DNA from: Candidatus Enterousia sp.
Lineage (GTDB): Bacteria; Pseudomonadota; Alphaproteobacteria; Rs-D84
Length of the DNA: 64,000 bases
Direction of reading: 5' to 3'
NCBI GenBank assembly: GCA_045645065.1
Contig: JAZRIB010000013.1
Location: 230 to 64,229 of the forward strand
Part shown: positions 12,295 to 63,011 of the stretch, piece by piece
Position numbering within the stretch: position 1 is the first letter of the stretch
How the letters are laid out: each line of letters starts with the position of its first letter
Made by a program: the position numbers and the translations under genes
The notes under the pieces: model-generated
Told to the model about the DNA's origin: nothing
Seen by the model: the letters and a program-made list of their open reading frames with translations, nothing else
The model's database searches: none

Positions 12295-14547
12295 ATGGCC
12301 AAGAAGTTCAACTTTTTATCAGCGTCCGGCAAAGGCAAAGGCCTGGGGATTTTCAAATCTACATCTTACAAAGAGCATGAAAAGACCCCAATGGCGCAAA
12401 TATTCTGGCGAATCCGCTGGGGGTGTGGCATATGGATTGTGTGTGCGCTGGCGTTTGCAACTACTTTTGCGATTGAACATGTCTGGCGTTATGGCTGGTC
12501 CCCGGCCAGTTCGGTTTGGGTAAAAACATATTTTATGAATCTGGTGCACAGTGGCGGATTGTCCGCATTGGCTGAATTGCCATCTTGGGTATGGCGTTGT
12601 GTATATCGGACCGACATGGCATGTATGGTACCGCTGTTACCGATAATCGCATACTATTTCTTGGCAGACGGAACGTTTACAGATGAATTTAACCCACACG
12701 GCAAAGATAAATTTGATGAAAAATCTTCAAACAAAGCAACTGCCGCTGATATAAAACAAATGAACCAGGACTTCCGAAACAAAGATGGTTTATTCAAAGG
12801 GTTTATGATGGTTTTGGGATACTTTAAAAACAAAGGTAAAAGTGTTCCATTAATGTTTGACGAATGTTTATCCGCATTGTGTGTTGCGCCCCCCGGAACC
12901 GGTAAAACAAAGGGGTTTGTTGAACCGACGATTTTAGAATGTGATACTGTATCAATGATTATTAATGACCCAAAACCCGAATTAAAGCAGGAAACCAGCG
13001 GTTATCGTGCAACGGTTGGGCCGGTGTTTATTATGAACTGGGCGGGTCAAGATGACCCTGCACGTGGTATATATTACCCGTCATGGAATCCGTTATCTCC
13101 GGAACACGTACCGTTTAATACCGAACAACGTGATTTGTATATTGATTCAATTTGTAACACATTAATCCCAGACCGTTCGGGATCATCCGCCGACCCACAC
13201 TGGACAATCACGGGTCGTGCGGCATTGACCGGATTTGTTCAATATATAGTGTCCAAGGTTGAACGTGCCAAGGCAGACGATTACTTCTATGCACGCATGG
13301 CAAACGGCACATTTAATGCCGAAGATGCAGCGGTACTTTCTGATTACTATTTGTCTATGATGACCGATCCAAACGCATATGCCGCACACGCAATGTTGCA
13401 ACGTGGGGAATTAAACGCAATGAACTATGTCCATGTTGGAACATGGGCGCATATCCCAGACGTTTGGCGTGGCAAAGAAGCATCTTTTCCAATGATTCTG
13501 GACTGGTTAACCACCAGCCAGATTGATATCGCACGTCAAATGGACGAACGTCGTCGCGCGGGCGATCAAATGGTTATGATGGCCGACCCGCTAAAAGATA
13601 TGTTACAAGAAGCGGTTGCAGAAGCGCAACAATACGCATATTCACATCGTGCAGTCCAAGAATTAACCCAGCTTGCCAACACCCCAGACAAAGAACGTGG
13701 TTCTATTATGTCGACAGCGTTGTCGGGTCTGACTATTTTCCGTAATGCGGCGGTACGCAATCGTACATCACATTCTGATTTTCATTTTTCAGATTTGCGC
13801 GGAATGCGCGATCCACGCGATGGCAAGGTCAAGCCCGTTACGGTCTATTTATCCATAAATATGGTTGATGCCCAGGCATTAAATCCAATTACCGCGATAT
13901 TTATTGAATTAATGTCGAACTTCTTGTTGGCAAATAAACCAGGCGACACGCATAATGGCGAAGAATTGGGGCCGTATCCGGTACTGTTTGTATTGGACGA
14001 AATGCCCAAAATGCAAAAAATGCAGGCCGTTATCCAGGGGCCAGATTTGGGACGTGGACAAAAAATATCATACCTGTTAATTGGCCAGGATTTAAACCAG
14101 ATTGCCGAAAAATATGGGCGTGAAGCCGCTGATACAATCATTTCAACAACTGCTGCAAAAATTGTAATGCGTCAAAACGACCCGAAAAGTGCGGAACGGT
14201 TTTCCGAAATGATGGGTAAAAAAATGAAAAAAGAAAAAGGTGCCGATGGCAAGGAAGTCACCAACGAATCATTGCTTTATACCCCAATGGATATTATGAA
14301 ATTACCAGAAGCGAAACAGTTGGTTATTATTCAGGGACATTATAATCGTCCAATCGAAGCAGACCAAGAAAGATGGTTCTTGAACAAAACACCTGTTCAA
14401 AAAGAATTGTATAAAAAAGTCCAAATGGGCGAAGCACCACCATTACCAGAATTCTTGGTGCCGTCGCATCATCGTGCGCTGGGGTTTGCAGGGACGCCGA
14501 AAATTTATTATCCCGCGACCAAGGAAATCAAGGTTTTATCCGAATAA
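12295..14547 (+). CDS. virD4: type IV secretion system coupling protein (VirD4/TraG family)
   Basis: Two N-terminal TM helices, Walker A APPGTGKTKG, Walker B-like VLFVLDEMPKM, and the conserved LIGQDLNQIAEKYG block. Confidence 0.85.
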   Translation: MAKKFNFLSASGKGKGLGIFKSTSYKEHEKTPMAQIFWRIRWGCGIWIVCALAFATTFAIEHVWRYGWSPASSVWVKTYFMNLVHSGGLSALAELPSWVWRCVYRTDMACMVPLLPIIAYYFLADGTFTDEFNPHGKDKFDEKSSNKATAADIKQMNQDFRNKDGLFKGFMMVLGYFKNKGKSVPLMFDECLSALCVAPPGTGKTKGFVEPTILECDTVSMIINDPKPELKQETSGYRATVGPVFIMNWAGQDDPARGIYYPSWNPLSPEHVPFNTEQRDLYIDSICNTLIPDRSGSSADPHWTITGRAALTGFVQYIVSKVERAKADDYFYARMANGTFNAEDAAVLSDYYLSMMTDPNAYAAHAMLQRGELNAMNYVHVGTWAHIPDVWRGKEASFPMILDWLTTSQIDIARQMDERRRAGDQMVMMADPLKDMLQEAVAEAQQYAYSHRAVQELTQLANTPDKERGSIMSTALSGLTIFRNAAVRNRTSHSDFHFSDLRGMRDPRDGKVKPVTVYLSINMVDAQALNPITAIFIELMSNFLLANKPGDTHNGEELGPYPVLFVLDEMPKMQKMQAVIQGPDLGRGQKISYLLIGQDLNQIAEKYGREAADTIISTTAAKIVMRQNDPKSAERFSEMMGKKMKKEKGADGKEVTNESLLYTPMDIMKLPEAKQLVIIQGHYNRPIEADQERWFLNKTPVQKELYKKVQMGEAPPLPEFLVPSHHRALGFAGTPKIYYPATKEIKVLSE

Positions 14548-24682: not shown

Positions 24683-24712
24683 AAAAGATTCCCGCCAAAT
24701 GGCGGGTTTTTT
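24683..24712. terminator. bidirectional terminator between the skp-like and OmpA-like genes
   Basis: Stem cccgcc/ggcggg with aaat loop, followed by T6. Confidence 0.75.
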
Positions 24713-25388
24713 ATCGCACAGGCGCAATACGTAATTCAACGCGTCGATTGGTTAAACGTCCGATATCGTCTTGGGCTGCAATAGGGCGGGTTGCGCCACG
24801 TCCTATGATAAACAAACGTGTTGTATTTATGTCATGCTGACTAAAATAAACACCGACCCGTTGTGCCATATCCGCCGACAGCGCATTTGACGCAACTGTA
24901 TTTTGCATTGCGTCTGTATATCCAGCGATTTCAATAAACGTGGCATCGTACTGTTTTAATATTTTACTGATTGTGTTAAGTGTATCGTCGCCTGTTGCAG
25001 ATATTTGCGCGGCATTTAATTCCATAATTGCATCACGCACCAGTACGACAACAACGTCTGTCCCTGCGCGTTGTACGGAAATTCCTGGTTTTCGCAAACT
25101 GTCATAAAGTGCAAATTCCAATTCAGACATATATTTTATAATTCGTGCGTTATCATTTGCTAATTTGTCCCCATATTCTGATACAGGTTTTGTTACATTT
25201 TCATCCAGAATAACACGTCCGCCCGCCCCCAGATATACAGGTCGCTTAGCAATGCGTGCAGTATCAGTCATGTCTGAAAAACTTGCCCCGTTCAAATAAT
25301 GCGTCCATGTTGTGCGTTCCGGACTGGCGTACGGTGCACAAGCACTTAAAACGATTGAAAAAAAACAAAGTGCTAAATTTTTATGCAT
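24711..25388 (-). CDS. lipoprotein with C-terminal OmpA/MotB-like peptidoglycan-binding domain
   Basis: Lipobox VLSAC. C-terminal IEIAGYTDAMQNTVASNALSADMAQRVGVYF...GRLTNRRVELRIAP matches the OmpA_C pattern. Its start is 1 nt after the pilin-like gene stop. Confidence 0.8.
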   Translation of the reverse strand: MHKNLALCFFSIVLSACAPYASPERTTWTHYLNGASFSDMTDTARIAKRPVYLGAGGRVILDENVTKPVSEYGDKLANDNARIIKYMSELEFALYDSLRKPGISVQRAGTDVVVVLVRDAIMELNAAQISATGDDTLNTISKILKQYDATFIEIAGYTDAMQNTVASNALSADMAQRVGVYFSQHDINTTRLFIIGRGATRPIAAQDDIGRLTNRRVELRIAPVR

Positions 25389-25850
25389 TTACTCTATGAT
25401 AAACGATATTTGATTTGTCGGTGTTGAAAAACAGTTGTCTGACCCTGGACGCAATTCGTATCCATTAACAACGATACTGTTTGTCCAATCTGGAATTGCT
25501 GTTGAAAAATAAGCGCATTCACCCTGTGTTAAATCGGTCAAGTTGATTGAAAAATATTGTCCGTCTGCGCTGGGGGTCACAGACCATTGTTCGCCACCCA
25601 GTGGTGACTTGTCAGATTTTAATGCGCCCGCCTTAATCAAATAGTCAACAGAAAGCCCATAATAATCGCCACGCATTTCCATCAATAGTTTTACATCGTT
25701 TGCAATCTGTTTCAATTGTGATGATGCGATTGAACGTGCGTTGTTGTCGCGCATCATGCCGTACATACCGATTGCAGCCGCAACCATAACAGTCCCCACA
25801 GCGATAACGCCAACAATTTCAATCAAAGAACGCCCTGATTCTGCTTTCAT
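25389..25850 (-). CDS. type IV pilin-like protein (PilS-like by recollection)
   Basis: Short basic leader MKAESG, then RSLIEIVGVIAVGTVMVAAAIG (Glu at +5). C-terminal Cys pair (LTQGECAYF ... DNCFS) like a pilin D-region. AGGAG RBS. Its ATG overlaps the dnaX stop (TAATG). Confidence 0.7.
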   Translation of the reverse strand: MKAESGRSLIEIVGVIAVGTVMVAAAIGMYGMMRDNNARSIASSQLKQIANDVKLLMEMRGDYYGLSVDYLIKAGALKSDKSPLGGEQWSVTPSADGQYFSINLTDLTQGECAYFSTAIPDWTNSIVVNGYELRPGSDNCFSTPTNQISFIIE

Positions 25851-27964: not shown

Positions 27965-29320
27965 TTGCGTAAACAATCTGGTAATTTTCTTGTCCAGGCA
28001 TTATTAGCATTAACGCTGATATTTGCATTTATACCATTTGTTGCGACGCAACTTGCTGCGCGCAATGTTGATGCGCAAATGTATTCTGCCACGCGCCAGA
28101 TAAACAATGCATCGGCTGCGGCGCGTATATTTATCCGTGAAAACGTCCGTCATATTTCTTATGGGCAAACAATTGTAGCGGGCGATGATTTTGCAGATGT
28201 TCTGGAACCTTATGGGCTGCCATTGGGGTTTGTGCCGCGTACCGCCCTTGGCCAGGATATTGTTCTGGTTATGAATAAAACCCCGATGGGGATTTCTGCG
28301 CATCTTGATATAACAGGTGGTGGGTTATCTGAATTAGAATTGGCTGAATTAATACGACGTGTTGGTTTTTATGCATCATCTATTGAAAATGGTATTCGTG
28401 TTGGTGTTGTGTTAACTGATGATTATTCAGACGTTGTTCGTCGTAATGAACTTGATTTAGATAACAGTGGATTTTTAACCAATATTGATTTGGGGAACAA
28501 TTCTTTCTTGAATGCAGGTAACGTGTTTGCTTTGCGTGGCGATTTTGTATCGGGCCAGTTTACAACGTTGTCTATTGTTGGTACAGAATCAGGTCGCAAG
28601 GCGCAAAATGATATAAAAAATATTACAGCCAATAAATCAGTATTTCAAAGTCGTACCGGCGAAGCAGCATTGGCCTTGTTGCGTGGCACATTAAAACTGG
28701 GGACGATGGACGCGCGCACTGTGTCCAAGTTTGGCGAAGGTTCAAACTTTACTGCAAATTCAGCCGCGGTTTCTGATTTTTCAATGACTGCTGGTCGTAC
28801 AGCGTTTACAGGCCCTGCAAAATGGAATGTTCATGGCAATGTTGCAACCAGTAACATCAGTCTTAGTACAGAACGTCTGGATATAGATTCGTATCTAAAT
28901 GTTGCGCGCGGTCAAGATGTGTTTGTTGATGCGGACACGTTGGAATACAGTACAAAAAGTGGAATCGAAGCAGGGACAGTATACGCATCAAATATAACAG
29001 TTCGTGATCAAACGTCCCAGGGTTTAATTGGTGGGGCAGGTGGGGCGACAATCCTTGAAATTCGTCCTGCTGGTGCGTCATTGTTGCCAGATGTTTTAGT
29101 TGATTCTATAAACAATGATAAATTTGCTATTTTGAAAAACCCATCTGCTGATAATGGCGACGTTATCACGTGCAAGGATATTATTATTGATTTTGGTGGT
29201 GTGTATAATTCCAAATCATTGGCGCAAAATTTAATATGCCAATACGTTTTCTGGCAGCGTCTGGAACACAGAATACAAATCAAACAATGTTTAATGGCGG
29301 GTGGCAATGATTGTATTTAA
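27965..29320 (+). CDS. giant pseudopilin-like protein, paralogue 1 (PilV-like by recollection)
   Basis: TTG start behind a G7 RBS. Leader MRKQSG, then NFLVQALLALTLIFAFIPF (Gln at +5). Shares an N-terminal helix, a mid-protein motif (NIDLGNNSFLNAGNV) and length with the next two genes. Four Cys lie in the last 50 residues. Confidence 0.7.
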   Translation: MRKQSGNFLVQALLALTLIFAFIPFVATQLAARNVDAQMYSATRQINNASAAARIFIRENVRHISYGQTIVAGDDFADVLEPYGLPLGFVPRTALGQDIVLVMNKTPMGISAHLDITGGGLSELELAELIRRVGFYASSIENGIRVGVVLTDDYSDVVRRNELDLDNSGFLTNIDLGNNSFLNAGNVFALRGDFVSGQFTTLSIVGTESGRKAQNDIKNITANKSVFQSRTGEAALALLRGTLKLGTMDARTVSKFGEGSNFTANSAAVSDFSMTAGRTAFTGPAKWNVHGNVATSNISLSTERLDIDSYLNVARGQDVFVDADTLEYSTKSGIEAGTVYASNITVRDQTSQGLIGGAGGATILEIRPAGASLLPDVLVDSINNDKFAILKNPSADNGDVITCKDIIIDFGGVYNSKSLAQNLICQYVFWQRLEHRIQIKQCLMAGGNDCI

Positions 29321-30512
29321 TACAAAAATCTTTGCGAACGAAATGCGTGGTGCCAGTGTTATGGAAGTACTATTGGCGCTTGGTATTGTTGCGTTGGCAA
29401 CCCCGTTTGTATACAGTCAAATTTCGCGCAGCACCCAAACAGTACGTGATATGGCGTATGCGCACCAGATTATAGATGTTCGTGACAGTGTTTTGAATTT
29501 TGTTCGCATGAACCAAGATAAATGGCCAGATGTTGCACAAATTCGTCTTGATTCAGAAGAATTGCGTGCGATATCAGATATGCCTGTGGCGGGTCTGATT
29601 GATAAATATTCTGTACGTGGTGCAACGATAACAGATGTGTATTTAGCGTATGAAATAGGCGATGATTTAATGGCAACTGCACGAATTGCGTCACATATTG
29701 GTTCTGATGCGGCGGTTGTGTCTGATGATGGGGTGGCGTATGGCCCGTCATGGGCGGCATCTGCCCCAGATTTTAAGCCTGGGGATTTAGTGTATCGTAT
29801 AACACGTGATGTATCCGGTTCAGATACATCGCAATATTTGCATCGTGCAACATCGGGCGAAGACGAATTAAATGTAATGTTTCGTGATTTGAATATGGGC
29901 GGATACAATGTTTATAATGTTGCGTCTGTTGATGCTGATTCCGTACGTGCCAAAGAAGCAACGGCGTTTTTTGTAAATGCAAATGATATAACGGCTGAAA
30001 ACGTATATTTTTCATCTGGCGCAAACATGGAAGGGGGCGATGTTTTTATTGGAAGTATGCGTGTATCTGGCGATATAACAGGTTTCAGGGATATTTATGC
30101 AGATAAAATGAATGGCACGACATATACAACATCGGGTCGTATTATTGCAGACAAAGCAACTGTAACCAAATCGATAAACATTTCACGGGATTTGGTGTTA
30201 AAATCGGATACATCAAAAACAATCAGTGGTTTTGCAGGTTTGTCGACTGGGACTGTTGTTGCGCCTTTTTTATCAACCGAAGAAATTGTTTTTTATGAAG
30301 ATTTTGGTTTAACTGTATCTGGTGAATTATTGGTATCGACTGTTGCGCCGATTCAGATTGGTCGCTGGGTTTTTCCATCGACAACGCCACCGCGCTTTTC
30401 TAAATTTACAATATCGCGTACTACAAATCCATCAATGCCAGACAAACAAGAATTTGATGCCATAATGAAATCTGGCTGGATGCAGTCCGATGTGATAAAA
30501 CCAACGGAATAA
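29307..30512 (+). CDS. giant pseudopilin-like protein, paralogue 2
   Basis: Leader ...FNTKIFANEMRG, then ASVMEVLLALGIVALATPF (Glu at +5). Motif YLHRATSGEDELNVMFRDLNMGGYNVYNV. The start is uncertain: GTG 29301, ATG 29307 or ATG 29343. Confidence 0.7.
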   Translation: MIVFNTKIFANEMRGASVMEVLLALGIVALATPFVYSQISRSTQTVRDMAYAHQIIDVRDSVLNFVRMNQDKWPDVAQIRLDSEELRAISDMPVAGLIDKYSVRGATITDVYLAYEIGDDLMATARIASHIGSDAAVVSDDGVAYGPSWAASAPDFKPGDLVYRITRDVSGSDTSQYLHRATSGEDELNVMFRDLNMGGYNVYNVASVDADSVRAKEATAFFVNANDITAENVYFSSGANMEGGDVFIGSMRVSGDITGFRDIYADKMNGTTYTTSGRIIADKATVTKSINISRDLVLKSDTSKTISGFAGLSTGTVVAPFLSTEEIVFYEDFGLTVSGELLVSTVAPIQIGRWVFPSTTPPRFSKFTISRTTNPSMPDKQEFDAIMKSGWMQSDVIKPTE

Positions 30513-30513
30513 C

Positions 30514-31845
30514 ATGAAGCAACAAAACAGATTTTTTTCTGACATTATAAACAATTCTGTACGCGGCAGTATGCTGGTTGAATTGCTTTTAAGTGTGGCG
30601 TTGGCGGCATTGGTCATACCGTTTATATTTCAGTATCATCAAAATGCGGCCGTGCGCGCCCAGAATATTGCAATTACACAAAATATGAACGCTGTTCAAA
30701 AAGTTCTGGAACGTTATATTGTTGAAAACCGTTCTGATTTGTTGCGCACAGTTGGTAAAAATATAACACGTGTAAATCCCGAAGAATTATCAGAATACGG
30801 TCTGTCCCCTGTGATATTAGAAAACGCAGACAAATATCAATTGCGGATTCTAAAATCCACAGACGCCACCGGCAGTGCGACCTTGCAAGGGGTTGTTGTT
30901 TATACATCGCCTGATATAACGCCAATTCGTACACGTGAAATTGTAAATATTGGTGGTACGAATATGGGGTTTGTAGATGGCACACGTGCGTATGGTGCGT
31001 ACGGTGCGTGGCGTAATGATATGGCTGATATTGGAATTAATGCCACAGATGGTATTGTTGGCACAACGTCTGTTAAGCGTGATGCTGCGCTGTATTTGGT
31101 ACGATTACCATCAGATAACTTAGATGATGCAACAATGATGTCGCCGCTTAATCTGGGGGGGCATGATATAGTCAATGCAAAATTCTTTGATGCGACATCG
31201 GTCCAGTTTAATGAAGATTTGAATTTGAAAACAGGTGTTGCGCGCGACCTTATCTTTCAAAATCGTACCGCCATAGATACCACTTATACATCCCAGACCG
31301 CAACGGTTGCCGGTGGTTTGTCTGCGGATGGTCGCACGATGGATGTTTCTGGTAAATTCTTGTTGGCAGACATTGGGAAATTTGCATCGTTTACTGTTGG
31401 TGATTTATGGACTACGACAATGACATTGTCTGGGCTGTCGATTGATGCCTATGATGACAGTTATCGTGAACAGCCTGCGATATTAAAGGTTGCAGGTGCG
31501 CTGGATATGATTTCTGGTCGTATAGAAGCGATTTATACGACGGTTGGTTTTGCGGGTTCAATTACACCGCGTTTGGTTGTGTATGACAGAATCGAAGATT
31601 CTCGTAATAAAAACTATTATTGGGATGTTGCGTCGTCTACTGCAAACTTTGCAGATGTAACGCTGGCGGAACTTAATCGTTTGGCGACACTTGCATCACG
31701 TTTTGAACGTGTATCCGGCACAGACAGTACGCAATTGTTTGGTGGTGTTGTCGCAAACAAGAATGCGACAGCAGGCGATTTTATGAATGCGCTTCGTGAA
31801 ATTCAGGTGCGTGTTCGTGCGAAATATAGCCTGTTGAAATTATAA
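30514..31845 (+). CDS. giant pseudopilin-like protein, paralogue 3
   Basis: Leader MKQQNRFFSDIINNSVRG, then SMLVELLLSVALAALVIPF (Glu at +5). Motif LYLVRLPSDNLDDATMMSPLNLGGHDIVNA. It starts 1 nt after the paralogue 2 stop. Confidence 0.72.
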   Translation: MKQQNRFFSDIINNSVRGSMLVELLLSVALAALVIPFIFQYHQNAAVRAQNIAITQNMNAVQKVLERYIVENRSDLLRTVGKNITRVNPEELSEYGLSPVILENADKYQLRILKSTDATGSATLQGVVVYTSPDITPIRTREIVNIGGTNMGFVDGTRAYGAYGAWRNDMADIGINATDGIVGTTSVKRDAALYLVRLPSDNLDDATMMSPLNLGGHDIVNAKFFDATSVQFNEDLNLKTGVARDLIFQNRTAIDTTYTSQTATVAGGLSADGRTMDVSGKFLLADIGKFASFTVGDLWTTTMTLSGLSIDAYDDSYREQPAILKVAGALDMISGRIEAIYTTVGFAGSITPRLVVYDRIEDSRNKNYYWDVASSTANFADVTLAELNRLATLASRFERVSGTDSTQLFGGVVANKNATAGDFMNALREIQVRVRAKYSLLKL

Positions 31846-31870: not shown

Positions 31871-32395
31871 ATGAAAATAACATGTGATTTTTGCAAGACA
31901 GAATATAACGTTCAGTCACGTCCAGGTTCGTCTGTTCGTTGTGCGATTTGTGGCAACACTTGGACTGTGCCGGCCCCAGCGCGTAAAAATGCATTTTTAA
32001 TGTTTTTTGCATCGTTGTGCGCACTGTTGTCGGTAATTGTATTTGCGGTTGCGATTGTTGTTACACATAAACCAGACCCAGACCGTGATGCACCATTGAT
32101 TGCACGTGTATCTGGGCATGAAATCATAACAAATGACGATGGTGTTCGTCATTTGGTTGTTTCGGGTACTGTTACCAACAAAACGTCTGATATTTACGGT
32201 ATGCCAGACGTTATGATTGTGTTGCGTGATGCAGATGGTCGTGTCATATCGCACCAGAAATTTATGCCGTCTGCGACATTGATTGATGCGGGTGCGACAT
32301 CGGATTTTAAGTACACTTTGTCTGCACCTGTATCATCAAATATAAAAAGTATAGATGCGCGTTTGATTGTAGATGGGGGGAAAAATGATAAATAA
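31871..32395 (+). CDS. ZitP-like protein: MJ0042-type zinc ribbon + TM helix + DUF3426-like domain
   Basis: MKITCDFCKTEYNVQSRPGSSVRCAICGNTW (CxxC...CxxC), TM FLMFFASLCALLSVIVFAVAIVV, then a beta-rich C-terminal domain (LVVSGTVTNKTSDIYGMPDVMIVLRDADGRVI). Confidence 0.72.
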   Translation: MKITCDFCKTEYNVQSRPGSSVRCAICGNTWTVPAPARKNAFLMFFASLCALLSVIVFAVAIVVTHKPDPDRDAPLIARVSGHEIITNDDGVRHLVVSGTVTNKTSDIYGMPDVMIVLRDADGRVISHQKFMPSATLIDAGATSDFKYTLSAPVSSNIKSIDARLIVDGGKNDK

Positions 32396-32855
32396 AATAC
32401 TAGCGTGTTTGTTTGGTTGTTTTTTTGCTGTATCTGCGTTTGGTGCGTCGTCTGAAAGTCTTGCGCCACGCGTATCGATTTTTTCAACCAGTACTGATTG
32501 GGAAGCGGTCACAGGTCGTATGTTAAATGAATATCATGGTACGTTTCGTGGTAAATCATCATTGATTGGCCGTGGTTTGATGGTGTATTATCTGGACGGT
32601 TTTCCGTGTTATGGTCTGGGCGACAGTGTTCAAGCATGGATAAGCCCCAATGGTGAATCATCACATCGTCTACGCTTGGCGTGTATTGCTGCGCCCCAGA
32701 CAATAAATTTTGCATGGATTCATGCGTCACGTGATGCGGACGACCAGACAACAACAGGTATCATGACGTGCAAGATTCATAGTGACGGTGGACGTGATTT
32801 TGAAATAGATTTGGCTGATTGCACGCGTGGGCCCGATTGGGATGATTATGAATAA
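32385..32855 (+). CDS. small secreted cysteine-containing hypothetical protein
   Basis: Signal peptide MINKILACLFGCFFAVSAFGA and a G6 RBS 4 nt upstream. It overlaps the zitP-like stop by 11 nt. Confidence 0.6.
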   Translation: MINKILACLFGCFFAVSAFGASSESLAPRVSIFSTSTDWEAVTGRMLNEYHGTFRGKSSLIGRGLMVYYLDGFPCYGLGDSVQAWISPNGESSHRLRLACIAAPQTINFAWIHASRDADDQTTTGIMTCKIHSDGGRDFEIDLADCTRGPDWDDYE

Positions 32856-33829: not shown

Positions 33830-33926
33830 ATGTATTTGTTTTATCCCTAATTACCAACCAAAGCGCCAATTTTTTACTTTCCAAATTGTTGGTTTTATGT
33901 TAAAATAAAACAAAAGTATATGGAGT

Positions 33927-36900
33927 ATGGGAATGTCATTCTTTAAAAAATCGGTAAGTGTTTTGGCTGTTTTTGCTGTAATTCCTGCGGCTTTTGCGGT
34001 AACTGCGCGCCCCAGTGTAACGGCGGTTGCAAACACGGCGTCGCGTCGTTTGCCAACGCTGACGGCATATGTAAATTCAGGTACATCCACAACGGTTGGT
34101 ACAACATCGTCTGGGATATCTGATTCTGAATGTGTCGAAGCATACACCGAATGTATGAAATCAGACGAAGTTTGTGGTTCTGATTTTCAGGAATGCACAA
34201 CCCGTAAATTGTTCCACGGTCAAATGCCAAAGTGTTTGAACGTTTTGTCCCAGTGTTCATCATCTGGAATATCTAATTTGTTTGGGACATCTGCGGTTGC
34301 GTCTTTGGGCGCAATCAAGACCCAAGATTCCAAGACTGGTGAAATTCTAGATTATACATACCCAACCGATGGCAGTGTAATGGGTCAATGGGTATCTGCG
34401 GCGGCGATTAATAACCAGTATGATACATCAACATGCGTAAAACGTTATACATCATGTTTGCAAAAAGACAGTGTTTGCGGTGCAGATTTTGAATTGTGCA
34501 CCACAACCAAAGATTTCAAAAAGCAGGCATTGTTCTGTGATTCAACATTGGCGCGTTGTCAAAGTGCCGGGGTCAAAGAATTGTTTGGTGTGTATCCATG
34601 GACACCGTCCAGTGCAACAATTAATGGTCGTGTATCATCTATGATAGAAGATGGTGCAAAACTGGCGGCGTTAAATGCTGTTTCTACATGTTACAAGGTT
34701 GTAGAACAGTGTTTCTTGGGTGCATGTGCAGCCAACCCATTCCGTTGTATCGAAGGGTCAACATTGGATATGGTTGTTGCTGCGAATTTGGCATCTGAAA
34801 CCCCAGAAAACACTACATACATAGAAGAGGGCGCTACATCCACAGGAACTGTTTCAAAAACAGATGTAAATCGTTTCTTGAAAACGTCTTGTTTGGATAC
34901 AATTGGTTCAAACAAGTATTGTCATATGACATTCCGTGAAAAAACACCGACTAAGGGTGAATTAGCCGATATCGACACCCAAGAAGAAGTTTTTGATGCG
35001 GCAATCGACCAGCGTAAAAAATACGTAGATTCCAAGATTCAAGATATTATGCAGAAATTTGACACCCGTGCTAAGGATAAATGTGCCGACACAATCCGTA
35101 CATGCGCAATGCGTACCTGTGGCGAAGGAATTGGTTCGGTCTGTTATACATCTGTGTTTGATGGTAAAAACGAATCTATTAACAAAGAATCTGTACGTGA
35201 ACAAATTAAACGTGGATGTGAATCAATTGTGAATACAGACACGAATTGTCAATATGCGTATTCTGCGGTTAAAAATGAAGCGTATTCATATTCATACTTA
35301 AACGATGGTGTATTTGATACATTGTTCCCAGAATATGACGAAACAAATAAACAAGACCCAATCGGTGTTGTTGCGTCATTGAATTCAACATTGGCGAATA
35401 ATTACAGTATGTCTGCTATTGCAGAAATGAAGAAACAATGCCAATCCGTCGCAAAAAGTTGTGTCAAGACAATGTGTGGCATCGATTACGTAAATTGCTA
35501 TCGCAATCGTACAGATATTTTATCTGATTTGACTAAATCTGGTGATGATGCGTTTGACAAATCAATGAACAAGGTTGGCGGTGTACTGGATTACACAATC
35601 GTATTAGGGCTATGTATGGAAACCGTCAAAGGGGCTGATGTTTGTGATGAACACCTGAAAATAGAACAGGCGCGTCTGGCCCAGGGTGCAAATTTAACAA
35701 ACAATTGGGGCGCATCATCGTCTGTTCGTGATGGCTGGATTGATGCGGGTGGTTCTAAATCTGTAACAGTTGATACAGAAACCGTACAAAAGGTTGATGC
35801 CAACGGTAATCAAATTTGTGCTAATTCCAAAGGGGACGAAGGAATCTGTTATCAAATGGACGCTGATGCGGACGTATATGATGAACCTGTATATCAATCA
35901 TATAAAACATATCTGACGACCCAGGCGGCGACATCTTTGTTCCGTGAACTGATTTCGGACATTGAATACGAAGCCCAGGCAAAATATAATGCGAAACTGA
36001 CGAAACAGCAAAATATGTGTATGTCGGCAAATTCTGGCGGAATCATGGGTCAGAATGATTTGGCATCAACATTTATGTGGGCAAAACTGAAAAATAACAA
36101 AGTTCCAACCAATTATGCATCGGCTGGGTTGAAACCGAACCAGTTTGTGGCCAGCAATGATTTGTATGGTTCGTTCTGTCGTGTACGTGTAAATGTTCAG
36201 TCTGATAACAAAGATATCCAGGATGCTATTAACAAAGGTGCAGATTGGGCAACGGCATACTTTGCCGCCGGCGACAGTTTCACCTGTGGCAGTTGGATAA
36301 GCAGTTCAGATCTTGAAAAAATTGCAAAAATCGTTGGCGAAGATGCACGTAATAATGCGGAATTGTCCCAGAAAGAAAATCTGAAATGGTGGTTGGCGCC
36401 ATTGGGTGCGGTTGCATCTGGTGTTGGCGGTGCTTATCTGGGGGCGGGTATTGCAAACGGTGACGTATTTGGCAAATTATCCGGCCTGAACCCGAACAGA
36501 AAAGCAGGCAACACAGAAAGGGCGATTAATCTTTGTAAGAATCATGTGGCAGATGTGCAGAAATATACAGGAACGGATTTAGTTTCGTCTGCTTATAATG
36601 CAATTAAAGTTGCAAGAGAATTAGATGTGGTTTCAACAGTCATTCAAAAAGCAGTAGAAGAAACAGACGACTATGAATCCAAATATAAAGAATATGAAGA
36701 TTGTATCGAAAAAAATAAAAAGGAATCGGGTAGTTGTACAAAATCAAATCCGTCTGTACAAGTTGTTAGAGATAGATTGCTTTCATTAGGTGAGGCATGC
36801 GAAGCTGTTAAAGGTGAAGAAAAAGATAAAGCAGATACAATAAAAGGTACCAAAATTGCGGCGGGTGTAACCGGTGGCGTGTCTGCGGTTGCAGGTGGCG

Positions 36901-37067
36901 TGTTGACGTACTTTGCTACAAAATCAATCCAGCAAGAAAATCTGGATAAAACACAACAGGCTGCATATCAAAAGTTTATGGATGAAATTGGCAACCATAT
37001 CTATTGCTATATCGGTGGCGAAGAAGCCGGTCAATACGGTGACGTCATCACCACCAGTATGGAATAA
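33927..37067 (+). CDS. large secreted cysteine-rich repeat protein with two Gly-rich C-terminal hydrophobic helices (no recognisable family)
   Basis: Signal peptide ...VFAVIPAAFA|VT, GGAG RBS, and about 40 Cys by manual count arranged in repeated fixed-spacing modules. C-terminal WWLAPLGAVASGVGGAYLGAGIA and IAAGVTGGVSAVAGGVLTYFA. Confidence 0.8.
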   Translation: MGMSFFKKSVSVLAVFAVIPAAFAVTARPSVTAVANTASRRLPTLTAYVNSGTSTTVGTTSSGISDSECVEAYTECMKSDEVCGSDFQECTTRKLFHGQMPKCLNVLSQCSSSGISNLFGTSAVASLGAIKTQDSKTGEILDYTYPTDGSVMGQWVSAAAINNQYDTSTCVKRYTSCLQKDSVCGADFELCTTTKDFKKQALFCDSTLARCQSAGVKELFGVYPWTPSSATINGRVSSMIEDGAKLAALNAVSTCYKVVEQCFLGACAANPFRCIEGSTLDMVVAANLASETPENTTYIEEGATSTGTVSKTDVNRFLKTSCLDTIGSNKYCHMTFREKTPTKGELADIDTQEEVFDAAIDQRKKYVDSKIQDIMQKFDTRAKDKCADTIRTCAMRTCGEGIGSVCYTSVFDGKNESINKESVREQIKRGCESIVNTDTNCQYAYSAVKNEAYSYSYLNDGVFDTLFPEYDETNKQDPIGVVASLNSTLANNYSMSAIAEMKKQCQSVAKSCVKTMCGIDYVNCYRNRTDILSDLTKSGDDAFDKSMNKVGGVLDYTIVLGLCMETVKGADVCDEHLKIEQARLAQGANLTNNWGASSSVRDGWIDAGGSKSVTVDTETVQKVDANGNQICANSKGDEGICYQMDADADVYDEPVYQSYKTYLTTQAATSLFRELISDIEYEAQAKYNAKLTKQQNMCMSANSGGIMGQNDLASTFMWAKLKNNKVPTNYASAGLKPNQFVASNDLYGSFCRVRVNVQSDNKDIQDAINKGADWATAYFAAGDSFTCGSWISSSDLEKIAKIVGEDARNNAELSQKENLKWWLAPLGAVASGVGGAYLGAGIANGDVFGKLSGLNPNRKAGNTERAINLCKNHVADVQKYTGTDLVSSAYNAIKVARELDVVSTVIQKAVEETDDYESKYKEYEDCIEKNKKESGSCTKSNPSVQVVRDRLLSLGEACEAVKGEEKDKADTIKGTKIAAGVTGGVSAVAGGVLTYFATKSIQQENLDKTQQAAYQKFMDEIGNHIYCYIGGEEAGQYGDVITTSME
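34128..34286 (+). repeat. six-Cys module copy 1 (protein-level repeat, residues 68-120)
   Basis: ECVEAYTECMKSDEVCGSDFQECTTRKLFHGQMPKCLNVLSQCSSSGISNLFG; spacing C-x6-C-x6-C-x6-C-x12-C-x6-C. Confidence 0.85.
34431..34589 (+). repeat. six-Cys module copy 2 (residues 169-221)
   Basis: TCVKRYTSCLQKDSVCGADFELCTTTKDFKKQALFCDSTLARCQSAGVKELFG has Cys spacing identical to copy 1, although the DNA has diverged. Confidence 0.85.
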
Positions 37068-37079
37068 ATAAATTAAAAT

Positions 37080-37112
37080 AAAAAATCCCCCGCATGGGGG
37101 ATTTTATTTTTT
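37080..37112. terminator. bidirectional terminator between the Cys-rich gene and rlmN
   Basis: A-run, stem atccccc/gggggat with gcat loop, then a T-rich run. Confidence 0.8.
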
Positions 37113-49646: not shown

Positions 49647-50243
49647 TTACTGCTTCAAATTTTCTGCGACGGTATCCCAATCAACCAAATGGTTCAGATA
49701 TGTATCAACAAAATCGCCGCGACGATTTTGATAATCGACATAGTACGCATGTTCCCATACATCTAAATTTAATATAGGTTTCATATTGTGTGCGATTGGT
49801 GTATCTGCGTTGGGTAAGTTTATAATCTTTAATTCATTGCCATCGCGCACCAGCCATGTGTAACCACTGCCAAACAAACTGGTCGCCGCAGATTTGAATT
49901 GTTTTCGAAAATTTTCATCCCCACCAAACGCATTTGAAATCTCGGTCGGAATTTCGCCACCACAATCCCGACACATTCCGCTGAAAAAGAAATCGTGATT
50001 GAACACCTGGGCGGCATTGTTAAATATTTTTTGTGCGTTTGGATTATTGTTGTCGCGTGTTGATGTGTTTATGATTTCATATAAAGACACCGATTCGTAT
50101 GGTGTATCTTGAATTAACTCGTTCAGGTTTTTTATATATGTTGCCACGTGTTTGCCGTGATGCAGTTCCAGTGTTTCTTGGGACATATATGGTGCTAATG
50201 CGTCGTATGTATATGGTAATGGGAATTGCGCCAGTGTGAACAT
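49647..50243 (-). CDS. sodB: Fe/Mn superoxide dismutase (Fe-type signature)
   Basis: LPYTYDALAPYMSQETLELHHGKHV and DVWEHAYYVDYQNRR. AAGGAG RBS. Confidence 0.93.
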   Translation of the reverse strand: MFTLAQFPLPYTYDALAPYMSQETLELHHGKHVATYIKNLNELIQDTPYESVSLYEIINTSTRDNNNPNAQKIFNNAAQVFNHDFFFSGMCRDCGGEIPTEISNAFGGDENFRKQFKSAATSLFGSGYTWLVRDGNELKIINLPNADTPIAHNMKPILNLDVWEHAYYVDYQNRRGDFVDTYLNHLVDWDTVAENLKQ

Positions 50244-50389: not shown

Positions 50390-50968
50390 ATGAAAAAATT
50401 ATCAGCATTGTTTGCATTGTGTGGATTGGCATTTGTTGGCGCTGCATCTGCGGCCGATATTACAGTATATTATTCCCCAACATGCCCACATTGTCATCAC
50501 GCACGTGAATTTATTTCCCAGAACTTGGTTTATGAATATCCAATGATTTCTGTTACAGAAGTTAACGTTATGGACCAAGCCAACATGGAAAAGTTCCAAG
50601 CAACATTAACAAAATGTGAATATGAATCTGGTGGTGTGCCTGTATTAACTGTTGGTGATAAATGCTTCCAGGGTTATGCTGATTTTATGCAGACTGAATT
50701 ACGCGAAGCAGTCGAAGCGGATTTAAGCGATGCCGACAAAGCAAGTGCGGCTGAAAATAAAAAAGCAATGGAAGAAGATGCAGAAAAATTCAAATCCGAA
50801 AACGCAGACAAGAAAGCAACGGTGTCAGAATATACAGCTCCTGTTGAAACAGCTTCAGTAGAAGCTCAAAAAAAAAATCCTGGCTCGTCTAGCATAATGT
50901 TCTGGGGCTTATTAATTGTATTGGTTGCGGGTCTGGGATTTGTTTTGGTTCGTAAAGACAAGAAATAA
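50390..50968 (+). CDS. exported thioredoxin/glutaredoxin-fold protein with CPHC active site and C-terminal TM anchor
   Basis: Signal peptide ending GAASA|AD, YYSPTCPHCHHAREF, a GVPVLTVGDKCFQGY glutaredoxin-like turn, an acidic/Lys-rich linker, and the terminal IMFWGLLIVLVAGLGFVLV helix. Confidence 0.75.
   Translation: MKKLSALFALCGLAFVGAASAADITVYYSPTCPHCHHAREFISQNLVYEYPMISVTEVNVMDQANMEKFQATLTKCEYESGGVPVLTVGDKCFQGYADFMQTELREAVEADLSDADKASAAENKKAMEEDAEKFKSENADKKATVSEYTAPVETASVEAQKKNPGSSSIMFWGLLIVLVAGLGFVLVRKDKK
50868..50877 (+). repeat. A10 homopolymer inside the CPHC-protein coding sequence
   Basis: caa aaa aaa aat (QKKN), just upstream of the C-terminal anchor-coding part. Confidence 0.9.
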
Positions 50969-61621: not shown

Positions 61622-61691
61622 GTTTATAAATTTTTCCGCTTGCACCGAATTCGCAATTTGTTCTATGATAAAAAACGGAAGGAAAGGGATT

Positions 61692-63011
61692 ATGCGTCAT
61701 ATAACTGTTTCAATCTTTTCGTTTTTGCTGGTTTTGCCTGCGTTTGCAGACGCACGGTTACCTGTTGTGAACCTGGCTTCGGCGGGTGTTTCTGCGCGTG
61801 CTGCGTTTGGTGAAACAATATCAACACCAAATGTTGAAAAAAAGCAATTGCCGAAAAAGAATGTTGTTGCACGTCCATCTGTTAAACGCACATCAAAGCC
61901 GTCACGTGTTGCGATGGATGTTGGCGAAACAAATTATGCATCAAATGATATATTGTTACCTAGTCGCCCCAGCAATGATTTGTGGGCGCATAATTCGTCA
62001 AATTTCGGTACTGCATCCGCAGATGCACCATTGCGTATGCCAAAGCCATCTGAATTCGCGGTATATCGCAGTGATGATGTTTTACCAGAAGAAAATTTGG
62101 ATTCATCATCAATGCCTGTGACATATGCGTATAACGATACCCCCAGTGTGAAATCACGTAACTCTGGTGCCAAGAAGTCTGAACTGGATGAACAAATTGA
62201 TCGCTTGGTTGAATTACAGCGTCGCGCGGATGAAAGTGTTTCTGTTGCGTCTGTAAATGTTGCACCACGTGTAATCGCGCGCCCCATCACAGAAGAAAAA
62301 GCAACGCCGGTTATTGAATCACGTGTGGCGTTGGCGGATGTTAAGCCTGTTGAAACTGTAAATGTTCGTCGTATGGTTGTCCCAATGGAATCACGTGATG
62401 TTGTTGTGCGCAGTGTTGAAAAAAATGAATCACCACGTATTGCTGCGGTACGTGAAGATATGACAAAATTAAGTCCGTCTGAATTACGTCGTGCATTTCG
62501 TAAAACGTTTTTATCTGAAAATAAACACTTGTCAACATATACGATGGATGATGTTTTTGACGTGGTCAGTGATATGGGCTCGTCTTCTGGGTCGTTTACA
62601 TCTGCGCGTGATTTAAGCGAAGATGCTGGAATTCGTCCGTTGGAAATCAAGATTAATTTCCGCAATGATGATTCATCTTTGTCGCGTGATAATTATAATT
62701 TGTTAAGTGAATATGCTGCAATTGTTGTTCATAATCCAACGCGTGCTATTCAGATTGCGATTCCTTCGCATGCAACCACAGATTCTGATACACGTAAATT
62801 AACTGCGCGGCGTTTGGCGATTGTTGAACAGGTGTTGCGTGATACCGGCGTTTCCCAGCAGCGTATTGTGCCTGTGTTGTCACAACGTGACGAATCTGGT
62901 TTTGTTTTACGTGTAATCTCGAATGAACAATTTGAAACGTTGTCACAACAGAAAAAAAATATTTTTGGTGATACGGTTTCTAATAAAAAATACAAAAGTA
63001 TGACGTGGTAA
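61692..63011 (+). CDS. secreted protein with degenerate C-terminal OmpA-like domain
   Basis: Signal peptide MRHITVSIFSFLLVLPAFADA, a long low-complexity region, and C-terminal FRNDDSSLSRDNYNLLSEYA...TRKLTARRLAIVEQVLRDTGVSQQRIV. GGAAGG RBS. Confidence 0.65.
   Translation: MRHITVSIFSFLLVLPAFADARLPVVNLASAGVSARAAFGETISTPNVEKKQLPKKNVVARPSVKRTSKPSRVAMDVGETNYASNDILLPSRPSNDLWAHNSSNFGTASADAPLRMPKPSEFAVYRSDDVLPEENLDSSSMPVTYAYNDTPSVKSRNSGAKKSELDEQIDRLVELQRRADESVSVASVNVAPRVIARPITEEKATPVIESRVALADVKPVETVNVRRMVVPMESRDVVVRSVEKNESPRIAAVREDMTKLSPSELRRAFRKTFLSENKHLSTYTMDDVFDVVSDMGSSSGSFTSARDLSEDAGIRPLEIKINFRNDDSSLSRDNYNLLSEYAAIVVHNPTRAIQIAIPSHATTDSDTRKLTARRLAIVEQVLRDTGVSQQRIVPVLSQRDESGFVLRVISNEQFETLSQQKKNIFGDTVSNKKYKSMTW

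Follow-up and report, generated by a model that had tools for sequence, protein, structure and literature searches.

A secreted, cysteine-rich protein of Candidatus Enterousia whose two glycine zippers enclose a hypervariable cassette exchanged by recombination

The locus and its gene

Within a stretch of 64,000 nucleotides of DNA from Candidatus Enterousia sp. (GenBank assembly GCA_045645065.1, contig JAZRIB010000013.1, positions 230 to 64,229; hereafter the window), a long open reading frame on the plus strand encodes a protein of 1046 amino acids in which cysteines recur at fixed intervals. An earlier note, made by a model from the letters of the window, described a secreted protein with about 40 cysteines in fixed modules; the open reading frame is present and holds exactly 40 (3.8% of its residues, compared with 0.78% in 20 neighbouring genes), at the spacings described. 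The gene is among the largest of the window, which consists of the housekeeping DNA of a diderm bacterium and includes genes for MreB, MutS, ParAB, DnaX, NusA, IF-2, LptD, LptF/G, SurA, Skp, an OmpA-family protein, PBP1, and MraY. We conclude with high confidence that the product is exported, fully disulfide-bonded, and specific to its lineage, and that a hypervariable cassette, subject to recombination, lies between its two glycine zippers. The features of the gene and its flanks are as follows, with helices and folds taken from an AlphaFold2 (AF2) model.

33878..33925, plus strand: weak promoter-like site TTTCCA-17-TAAAAT with TG (33878-33906) and Shine-Dalgarno GGAG (33922-33925), by consensus match only
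33927..37067, plus strand: whole open reading frame, 1046 amino acids, coordinates including the stop codon
33927..33998, plus strand: Sec-type signal peptide, residues 1-24, MGMSFFKKSVSVLAVFAVIPAAFA, cut before VT, without a lipobox; read from the sequence and conserved in the family consensus
33999..34064, plus strand: conserved mature N-terminal motif (V/A)TARPS(V/I)...RR(M/L)PT(L/M)T, residues 25-46, from the family alignment
34125..34289, plus strand: six-Cys module A1, residues 67-121, with C69, 76, 83, 90, 103, and 110 spaced C-x6-C-x6-C-x6-C-x12-C-x6-C
34428..34592, plus strand: six-Cys module A2, residues 168-222, with C170, 177, 184, 191, 204, and 211; a paralogue of A1 by Cys spacing and BLASTP
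34659..34946, plus strand: helical unit B1, residues 245-340, with C255-x6-C262-x4-C267-x6-C274 on a long helix and C322-x9-C332 on a helix-turn-helix (spacing, AF2)
35052..35261, plus strand: helical unit B2, residues 376-445, with C386, 393, 398, and 406 and C431-x9-C441 (spacing, AF2)
35409..35666, plus strand: helical unit B3, residues 495-580, with C505, 512, 517, and 524, C563-x9-C573, and an invariant CYRNRTD motif (spacing, AF2)
35769..35906, plus strand: beta-rich stretch, residues 615-660, with a C631-x9-C641 hairpin (spacing, AF2)
35907..36386, plus strand: most conserved part, an alpha/beta core, residues 661-820, with motifs EAQAKYNAKLTKQQNMC, NDLYGSFCRVRV, and YFAAGDxFTCGSWI (family alignment, AF2)
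36387..36473, plus strand: glycine-zipper segment 1, residues 821-849, WWLAPLGAVASGVGGAYLGAGIANGDVFG, register G827-S831-G835-G839-A843 (sequence)
36474..36842, plus strand: hypervariable cassette, residues 850-972, a four-helix bundle in the model with a confidence score (pLDDT) of about 90 (entropy, alignments, AF2)
36843..36917, plus strand: glycine-zipper segment 2, residues 973-997, KGTKIAAGVTGGVSAVAGGVLTYFA, register A979-G983-A987-G991 (sequence)
36918..37064, plus strand: conserved C-terminal tail, residues 998-1046, an amphipathic helix and a beta-hairpin ending in IGNHIYCYIGGEEAGQYGDVITTSME, with invariant C1027 (family alignment, AF2)
37082..37105, no strand assigned: strong bidirectional intrinsic terminator with a 10-bp stem and T-runs on both sides, common to the gene and the convergent rlmN

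Translation probably starts two codons inside the open reading frame, at the ATG at 33933, giving a product of 1044 amino acids. This start is favoured over the ATG at 33927 because it stands at a 7-nt spacer from GGAG, matches the family consensus N-terminus (MSFLK), and agrees with public gene calls, in which the product has 1044 amino acids. Upstream, the gap of 97 nt that separates rluD from the gene holds the weak promoter-like site.

Cysteine modules of the scaffold

The gaps between successive cysteines run 6,6,6,12,6 / 59 / 6,6,6,12,6 / 43 / 6,4,6 / 47 / 9 / 53 / 6,4,7 / 24 / 9 / 63 / 6,4,6 / 38 / 9 / 57 / 9 and continue towards the C-terminus. The spacing C-x6-C occurs 13 times, compared with a mean of 1.2 and a maximum of 8 in 20,000 shuffles. 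As the earlier note had described, there are two six-Cys modules (C69-C110 and C170-C211), three four-Cys modules (C255-274, C386-406, and C505-524) that are each accompanied by a C-x9-C pair, and a fourth C-x9-C pair at C631/C641. Each four-Cys module together with its C-x9-C pair constitutes a second type of six-Cys unit, and the protein therefore has five six-Cys units in total. Three cysteines of the core (C698, C751, and C787) have no obvious local partner.

Modules A1 and A2 share 48% amino acid identity over 54 residues (BLASTP E 5e-18) and about 50% identity at the nucleotide level, where no repeat was detected; the repeats are thus conserved as protein and not as DNA, in agreement with the earlier observation. 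An old duplication kept under selection had also been proposed, and the family bears this out: members from divergent termite and other gut lineages carry one six-Cys module and the Enterousia clade carries two, with all cysteines kept. Among 76 more divergent full-length members, 27 have a single module and lack A1, and the duplication therefore arose inside the lineage and has been kept since.

The earlier note staked its description on the spacing being shared by homologues, and it is shared. Of the 40 Cys columns, 38 show little or no variation in 121 homologues with at least 50% identity. In the 76 more divergent members C698, C1027, and the cysteines of residues 170-573 are essentially invariant, while C641 and C958 are less constant. 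Within the mature N-terminal motif, T26, R28, R41, and P43 are invariant. The full-length AF2 model is mostly helical (pLDDT 71); it places the C-x6-C pairs on helices at positions i and i+7, along one face, with the C-x9-C pairs straddling helix-turn-helix corners.

A hypervariable cassette exchanged between strains

The earlier note saw two Gly-rich helices at the C-terminus separated by a charged helical region. The two helices are indeed present; the region between them is something more than a charged helix, namely a hypervariable cassette that is replaced by recombination. In an alignment of 72 sequences, column entropy reaches 2.8-3.3 bits at residues ~860-980, compared with 0.4-1.3 over most of the protein, and the region between the Gly-rich segments accounts for the range of protein lengths, 1021-1197 amino acids. 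Across 84 genes (one truncated copy aside) the cassette measures 107-297 amino acids, and these cassettes fall into 68 clusters at 50% identity. In a set of 75 cassettes the mean column identity is 11%, and no Pfam domain was found in any of them, toxin domains included. The cassette is bracketed by the conserved C870 and C958; C926 and C937 are specific to the allele in the window.

The manner of change is clearest in pairs of closely related genes. In four such pairs (L007/L012, L066/L068, L047/L063, and L031/L077) the scaffolds are 93.7-98.8% identical at the protein level and the cassettes cannot be aligned, with lengths that sometimes differ about 2.5-fold. Scaffold divergence in these pairs is low (synonymous, dS, 0.15-0.4; nonsynonymous, dN, 0.007-0.04), and the apparent divergence of the cassettes is dN 0.9-1.4 and dS about 2. 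Nucleotide identity in 90-nt windows is mostly 90-100% along the gene, but only ~10-55% within the cassette, and beyond it, at the 3' end, it is again 82-98%. The boundaries of the cassette are thus sharp, and even genomes with scaffolds 97-99% identical carry cassettes that cannot be aligned. Unrelated cassettes occur in half of the pairs whose scaffolds are 90-95% identical. Where two genes share an allele, the dN/dS ratio (omega) is usually several-fold higher in the cassette than in the scaffold, for example 0.58 compared with 0.03. Synonymous divergence that is saturated within an otherwise near-identical gene points to recombinational replacement and not to fast point mutation; the cassette is exchanged wholesale between closely related strains by recombination. 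This variation is seen between genomes, and the window contains no silent donor cassette (no second copy as DNA or protein), no template repeat of a diversity-generating retroelement (DGR), and no invertible repeats, its sole inverted repeat being the terminator. Membership among DGR targets or shufflons was rejected on the same grounds, with no second cassette copy and no flanking inverted repeats in the window, and with alleles that differ in length.

Disulfide bonding and export

The number of cysteines in the mature protein is even in 130 of 136 family members, and it is on this evenness that we base the view that all cysteines are almost certainly paired. Counts within the cassette are likewise even (0, 2, 4, 6, 8, or 10) in 127 of 130 members, and CxxC spacings are nearly absent there, with three gaps of two residues; these two properties indicate that the cassette most likely folds in an oxidising compartment, like the N-terminal domain, and therefore most likely lies outside the cytoplasm. 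The protein of the window has no CxxC or CxxCH motifs and five histidines in total.

Full pairing would amount to about 19 conserved disulfides in the family and 20 in the allele of the window. The scaffold would hold about 18 invariant disulfides, from the five six-Cys units, the one hairpin pair, and the three further cysteines, of which one is probably bonded to C1027. The conserved scaffold cysteines number 35, an odd count, and the tail has one invariant cysteine, C1027, which together suggest that the tail returns and bonds to the scaffold. The connectivity proposed here, including C870-C958 and the bond from C1027 to the scaffold, is predicted from spacing and constancy; correlated loss of cysteines across members yields no pairing, as the residues are too invariant and only the absence of whole modules is seen.

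A candidate oxidase for these bonds is encoded in the window.

50390..50968, plus strand: exported protein of thioredoxin/glutaredoxin fold, with the DsbA-type motif CPHC, anchored at its C-terminus by a transmembrane (TM) segment

Its gene adjoins that of an Fe/Mn superoxide dismutase (49647-50243, minus strand). With a signal peptide, an even number of conserved cysteines, and an exported thiol oxidase candidate, the protein has the marks of the general class of disulfide-bonded exported proteins, and the disulfide-stapled character that the earlier note suggested is strongly backed by the even counts and by the CPHC oxidoreductase candidate.

The family and its host lineage

Neither Pfam, NCBIfam, a sequence search of the PDB, nor Foldseek places the protein in a recognised family, consistent with the earlier impression. 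Nothing in Pfam-A reaches its gathering cut-off with the full protein (the best model, SLATT_fungal, scores 17 bits where 26.5 would be required), a search of NCBIfam is empty, and none of the 120 closest homologues carries a precomputed Pfam domain. The best PDB profile match, to TATA-box-binding protein (E 0.019), was taken as spurious. Foldseek finds no match for the full AF2 model in PDB and BFVD at E<=0.001, and with the conserved core (residues 596-822, modelled at a low pLDDT of 59) it returns only noise.

An exhaustive profile search of 1.84 billion protein cluster representatives yielded a family of 267 members, and relatives occur in the genomes of 245 GTDB species. Among the 80 of these genomes that were listed there is one locus per genome; nearly all are labelled Candidatus Enterousia or "uncultured Alphaproteobacteria/Rickettsiales", and their sources are the guts of humans, ruminants, birds, rabbits, and mice, with one closed metagenome-assembled genome (MAG) of 958 kb. 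The most divergent members come from MAGs named "Rickettsiales/Alphaproteobacteria bacterium", and "hypothetical protein" is the sole name attached to any named member. The family, which had not been described before, is confined to small-genome gut Alphaproteobacteria of the Rs-D84/Candidatus Enterousia lineage. Two records bear other names: a contig labelled 'Bacteroides fragilis' (L027, CAVGNU010000002.1) and another labelled 'Muribaculaceae bacterium' (protein P0079) both have clear Enterousia-type synteny, and the labels probably reflect mis-binning or mislabelling.

The order Rs-D84 is described as genome-reduced, without a TCA (tricarboxylic acid) cycle, respiration, or standard transporters, and has been proposed to depend on a partner organism that it contacts through unknown membrane proteins (PMC12306168).

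Other secreted proteins of these genomes have features that recall the family. A second secreted Cys-rich family (709-848 amino acids, 31-39 Cys) occurs in other Enterousia genomes and has no copy in the window; its members are as follows.

L060 12567-15113, minus strand: second Cys-rich family
L033 4708-7131, plus strand: second Cys-rich family
L049 1945-4074, plus strand: second Cys-rich family, directly upstream of the homologue of the present gene
L038 13389-15677, plus strand: second Cys-rich family

The two families share the motifs C-x6-C-x6-C-x6-C and 'C..Y..C...D.VCG.D...C', and homology between them was not established (hhalign E 0.002, probability 14%). A secreted protein of 448 amino acids, encoded at 61665-63011 (plus strand) downstream of a mraY/murG-like cluster, has 'ARLPVVN...ARPSV' just past its signal peptide, and further loci of this type lie at L033 18923-20182, L049 8142-9452, and L017 11614-12876. 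This sequence resembles the invariant 'TARPSV...RRMPT' at the mature N-terminus of the Cys-rich protein and may represent a lineage-specific sorting or docking motif.

Glycine zippers and a proposed topology

The two segments that flank the cassette are weakly hydrophobic (mean Kyte-Doolittle values of 0.75 and 1.26), and the K+R counts on their two sides, 5.50 and 5.54, give no orientation by the positive-inside rule. On account of this low hydrophobicity and absence of bias they would be poor Sec stop-transfer helices. When the cassette is excised in silico, seven of eight family members match PF05433, PF13488, or PF13441, weakly and with models that are of low complexity, and one exceeds the gathering score of PF05433 (26.0 compared with 24.2 bits). 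SlyB and YfgH, which are two-transmembrane (2TM) glycine-zipper lipoproteins, have been described as spanning the outer membrane (bioRxiv 10.64898/2025.12.22.696046).

A route from gene to cell surface can be proposed on this basis. The protein would be exported by Sec, and after signal-peptide cleavage some 760 residues would fold as a mostly helical, disulfide-locked scaffold. Near the C-terminus the chain would leave the scaffold through one glycine-zipper helix, form a disulfide-closed helical-bundle domain that differs wholly between strains, and return through the second glycine-zipper helix, so that the conserved tail could dock back on the scaffold. The zipper hairpin would be embedded in the outer membrane, as reported for SlyB and YfgH, with the scaffold and tail on its periplasmic side and the variable bundle displayed outside the cell. 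In that position the bundle might serve in strain-specific recognition by a partner cell or host, or by phage or antibody, or else help the cell to evade it, and homologous recombination in the conserved flanks would swap the cassette wholesale. The outer-membrane and peptidoglycan genes of the window (LptD, LptF/G, Skp, SurA, an OmpA-family protein, and PBP1) are counted in favour of this proposal, as is the partner dependence suggested for the lineage (PMC12306168).

Taken as a whole, the reading of an exported protein, probably anchored in the outer membrane, with a variable domain that is particular to each strain and on display, is a tentative one, to which we give somewhat less than an even chance, and our confidence in the mechanism of outer-membrane display is moderate to low. 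The membrane involved, the surface exposure, and the biological role are all parts of the proposal that we infer, and the suggestion of the earlier note, that this may be an envelope or host-contact protein, is of the same kind.

Several points weigh against outer-membrane display. The zippers of the protein in the window have no glycine-zipper Pfam match, either natively or with the cassette excised, and since the models are of low complexity the matches of relatives may reflect composition alone. Confidence of the AF2 model at the zippers is very low (pLDDT 25-35), and they may not be embedded in a membrane at all. The signal peptide has no lipobox, unlike those of SlyB and YfgH; it ends in PAAFA, followed after the cleavage site by VTARPS, with no cysteine at +1. 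We know of no precedent for an alpha-helical hairpin that crosses the outer membrane with an insert of 110-300 amino acids, nor of a route for its insertion. Hypervariability by itself is no proof of surface exposure. The report that Rs-D84 has no respiratory chains, moreover, bears on how a DsbA-like oxidase would be re-oxidised (PMC12306168).

The zipper-and-tail arrangement has one possible counterpart elsewhere. A word-indexed database search with the second zipper and tail (an alignment of 46 sequences) returned only four fragments of the same family. When a hidden Markov model of the tail was run over all open reading frames of 87 loci, one other protein was found, a repeat-rich secreted protein of 910 amino acids at L051 1232-3964 (plus strand), whose sequence was itself included in the model. 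It has a Gly-rich hydrophobic segment and ends in '...C.VGG....DYGD.F..GMQ', like the conserved tail CYIGGEEAGQYGDVITTSME. This hints that zipper and tail could be a reusable sorting or anchoring module.

Genomic neighbourhood

Upstream of the gene lies a block of genes for pilin-like and other proteins.

27965-29320, 29301-30512, and 30514-31845, plus strand: three consecutive pilin-like proteins of 400-450 amino acids, with N-termini G/NFLVQ, G/ASVME, and G/SMLVE (slash at the cleavage position), then a hydrophobic helix
31850-32395, plus strand: ZitP-like protein with an N-terminal Zn-ribbon and DUF3426, both below Pfam cut-offs
32373-32855, plus strand: secreted protein of 160 amino acids with six Cys, overlapping the ZitP-like gene and syntenic with the pilin-like block
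25389-25850 and 24711-25388, minus strand: apart from this block, neighbourhood of an ordinary type IV pilin and a Pal-like protein

The three pilin-like proteins are three times the normal size of a pilin and have no Pfam match, and the whole clade has their block. Among 86 loci, 73 keep the order g451-g403-g443-ZitP-like-g160-rluD-Cys-rich gene, even where protein identity is as low as about 46%. As had been noted, the Cys-rich gene lies downstream of the block, with no terminator-like site between it and rluD. In at least nine loci with enough upstream sequence the gene stands elsewhere, for example by a PBP1a/MraY cluster or after lptFG, so that linkage to the pilin-like block is not obligatory. 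As dnaX and other housekeeping neighbours are equally syntenic and the downstream genes vary between genomes, synteny is altogether weak evidence for a functional link.

The ordinary-sized type IV pilin (G/RSLIE, with a C-terminal Cys pair and no Pfam match) adjoins the OmpA-family (Pal-like) protein and dnaX. A VirD4/TraG-type coupling protein of type IV secretion (PF02534, E 7.5e-51) is encoded at 12295-14547 (plus strand), among housekeeping genes.

Alternative explanations

Different explanations can be proposed for the same features, and each draws on some of the evidence given above. The most conventional is an inner-membrane protein with a periplasmic Cys-rich N-terminal domain, in which the zippers are ordinary TM helices and the variable region is a drifting cytoplasmic coiled-coil spacer. 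This is the topology called by default for a signal peptide with two hydrophobic segments; the variable region is helical and rich in K and E, and the return of the tail cysteine C1027 to the side of the N-terminal domain fits a two-pass topology. However, there is no reason for cysteine counts to be even in a reducing cytoplasm, as they are in 127 of 130 cassettes, which also have no CxxC-type metal motifs. The zippers are weakly hydrophobic for stop-transfer and show no positive-inside bias, the cassette is confidently folded by AF2 (pLDDT about 90), and it diverges by whole replacement with saturated dS and not by gradual drift; we regard this topology as improbable. A place for the protein in the upstream pilin-like system, whether as adhesin at the tip, as anchor, or as secreted cargo of an apparatus like a type IV pilus or the type II secretion system, built from the three giant pilin-like proteins with the ZitP-like protein as organiser, seems to us no more probable than that. 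It would account for the order kept in 73 of 86 loci and for the terminator-free stretch from rluD to the gene, and the N-termini of the upstream proteins resemble class-III signals, with E at position 5. Yet the gene occurs in other contexts in at least nine loci, and with dnaX and other genes just as syntenic the order may be inherited rather than functional; a housekeeping gene, rluD, stands between block and gene, a promoter-like site precedes the gene, and the Cys-rich protein has no pilin features.

A secreted effector or alpha-pore-forming toxin would put the same parts to another use, with a stable disulfide-rich body for delivery or receptor binding, a zipper pair that inserts in the target membrane, of a partner or host, in the manner of VacA or ClyA/XaxA, and a variable domain that sets specificity. 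Glycine zippers are typical of oligomeric membrane-inserting helices, and weak profile matches to XaxA/YaxA (residues 868-1038, E 0.37-0.58) and to the 2TM pore domain SLATT (21.6 bits, below the cut-off of 26.5) point the same way, as do a VirD4 coupling protein and pilin-like genes nearby and an organism that probably lives off a partner (PMC12306168). All toxin-like matches are nevertheless below significance and Foldseek is empty. The gene has one locus per genome (among the 80 listed), mostly at one syntenic position; no immunity-like gene is conserved downstream, where neighbours differ and here include the convergent rlmN, and the variable part is internal and not a C-terminal toxin domain. 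We judge a toxin to be slightly less probable than either of the preceding alternatives. By far the least probable is that the cysteines ligate Zn, Fe-S clusters, or other metals, which their number and regular spacing might suggest. There are no CxxC or CxxCH motifs and no conserved histidine partners among the five histidines in 1046 residues; the i/i+7 spacing lines the cysteines along one helix face, as in disulfide-stapled helical hairpins, and their counts are even both in mature proteins (130 of 136) and in cassettes (127 of 130). The signal peptide is moreover of Sec and not Tat type, and export would therefore be unfolded, without cofactors.

Significance

No other feature of the protein is as informative as the cassette, which also alters the topology to be expected. 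Bacteria of the Rs-D84/Candidatus Enterousia lineage are widespread in the guts of humans, livestock, birds, mice, and termites, and have genomes of about 1 Mb. In such genomes a large gene of a family found widely across species, with the clearest mark of diversifying exchange between strains in the present analysis, is a concrete candidate for what determines recognition at the cell surface in this lineage. If the display model is true, the cassette could determine partner or host specificity, or be the main target of phage and antibody pressure. Of structural interest are a new disulfide-rich helical module, in which six-Cys units have i/i+7 spacing, and what may be a novel role for glycine-zipper helices. 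The combination of a conserved scaffold and a variable cassette would also offer a strain-typing marker for uncultured Enterousia in metagenomes.

Comparison with known systems

The nearest likeness for the zippers is with outer-membrane glycine-zipper 2TM lipoproteins (SlyB, YfgH, and the Rickettsia 17-kDa antigen; PF05433, PF13488), which are also exported and have two Gly/Ala-rich helices of low hydrophobicity in a GxxxG-type register. In contrast to SlyB and YfgH, the present protein has neither a lipobox nor a lipid anchor, its helices are separated by a variable domain of 107-297 amino acids where those proteins have a tight turn, and about 820 residues precede the first zipper, some 760 of them forming the disulfide-rich scaffold. 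In the distribution of its variation the protein resembles flagellin (D2/D3), type IV pilins (D-region), and Anaplasma Msp2/P44, where conserved flanks serve anchoring and recombination homology and a central domain is hypervariable in sequence and length; a Cys pair encloses the variable region here, as it does in pilins. Unlike in these systems, there are no silent donor cassettes in the window, and no relationship in sequence or fold connects them.

Regularly spaced helix cysteines that can pin neighbouring helices in repeated units are also known from mitochondrial CHCH twin-Cx9C proteins and the Helicobacter Hcp/Sel1-like repeats. The present protein differs in its spacings (Cx6C, Cx4C, and Cx9C in six-Cys units), is far larger, and would lie in a bacterial envelope. 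Membership in either group was rejected, with no Sel1 (PF08238) match at E<=10, no CHCH Pfam match, and a different cysteine spacing. Likeness to ClyA/XaxA/YaxA toxins and SLATT 2TM domains lies in a helical bundle joined to a hydrophobic helix pair, with weak matches over residues 868-1038 and 976-1027; assignment to the ClyA-family alpha-pore-forming toxins or SLATT was rejected on E-values of 0.2-0.6 or scores below the Pfam cut-off, an empty Foldseek search, and the lack of a conserved adjacent gene for a partner subunit. Polymorphic toxins and contact-dependent inhibition (CDI) systems were also rejected: the variable region does not end the protein, since a conserved zipper and tail come after it, and the downstream genes differ and are housekeeping genes.

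Conceptually similar is TraA of Myxococcus, which has a Cys-rich stalk, a recognition domain that is polymorphic, and a conserved anchor at the C-terminus. In the present protein the parts come in a different order, and the variable domain is helical and internal; a TraA-like receptor was rejected, as no Pfam or NCBIfam match was found to PA14, the Myxococcus Cys-rich repeat, or MYXO-CTERM. Were display through an outer-membrane hairpin true, the architecture would be new in kind. Such a surface-variation architecture, with a zipper hairpin that crosses the outer membrane, an exchanged disulfide-closed bundle as a giant "loop", and an 18-disulfide periplasmic scaffold as anchor, is in our view rather unlikely. 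Set beside these known systems, the protein is rated as a polymorphic envelope or surface protein, which is a known kind, built from unrelated and undescribed parts.

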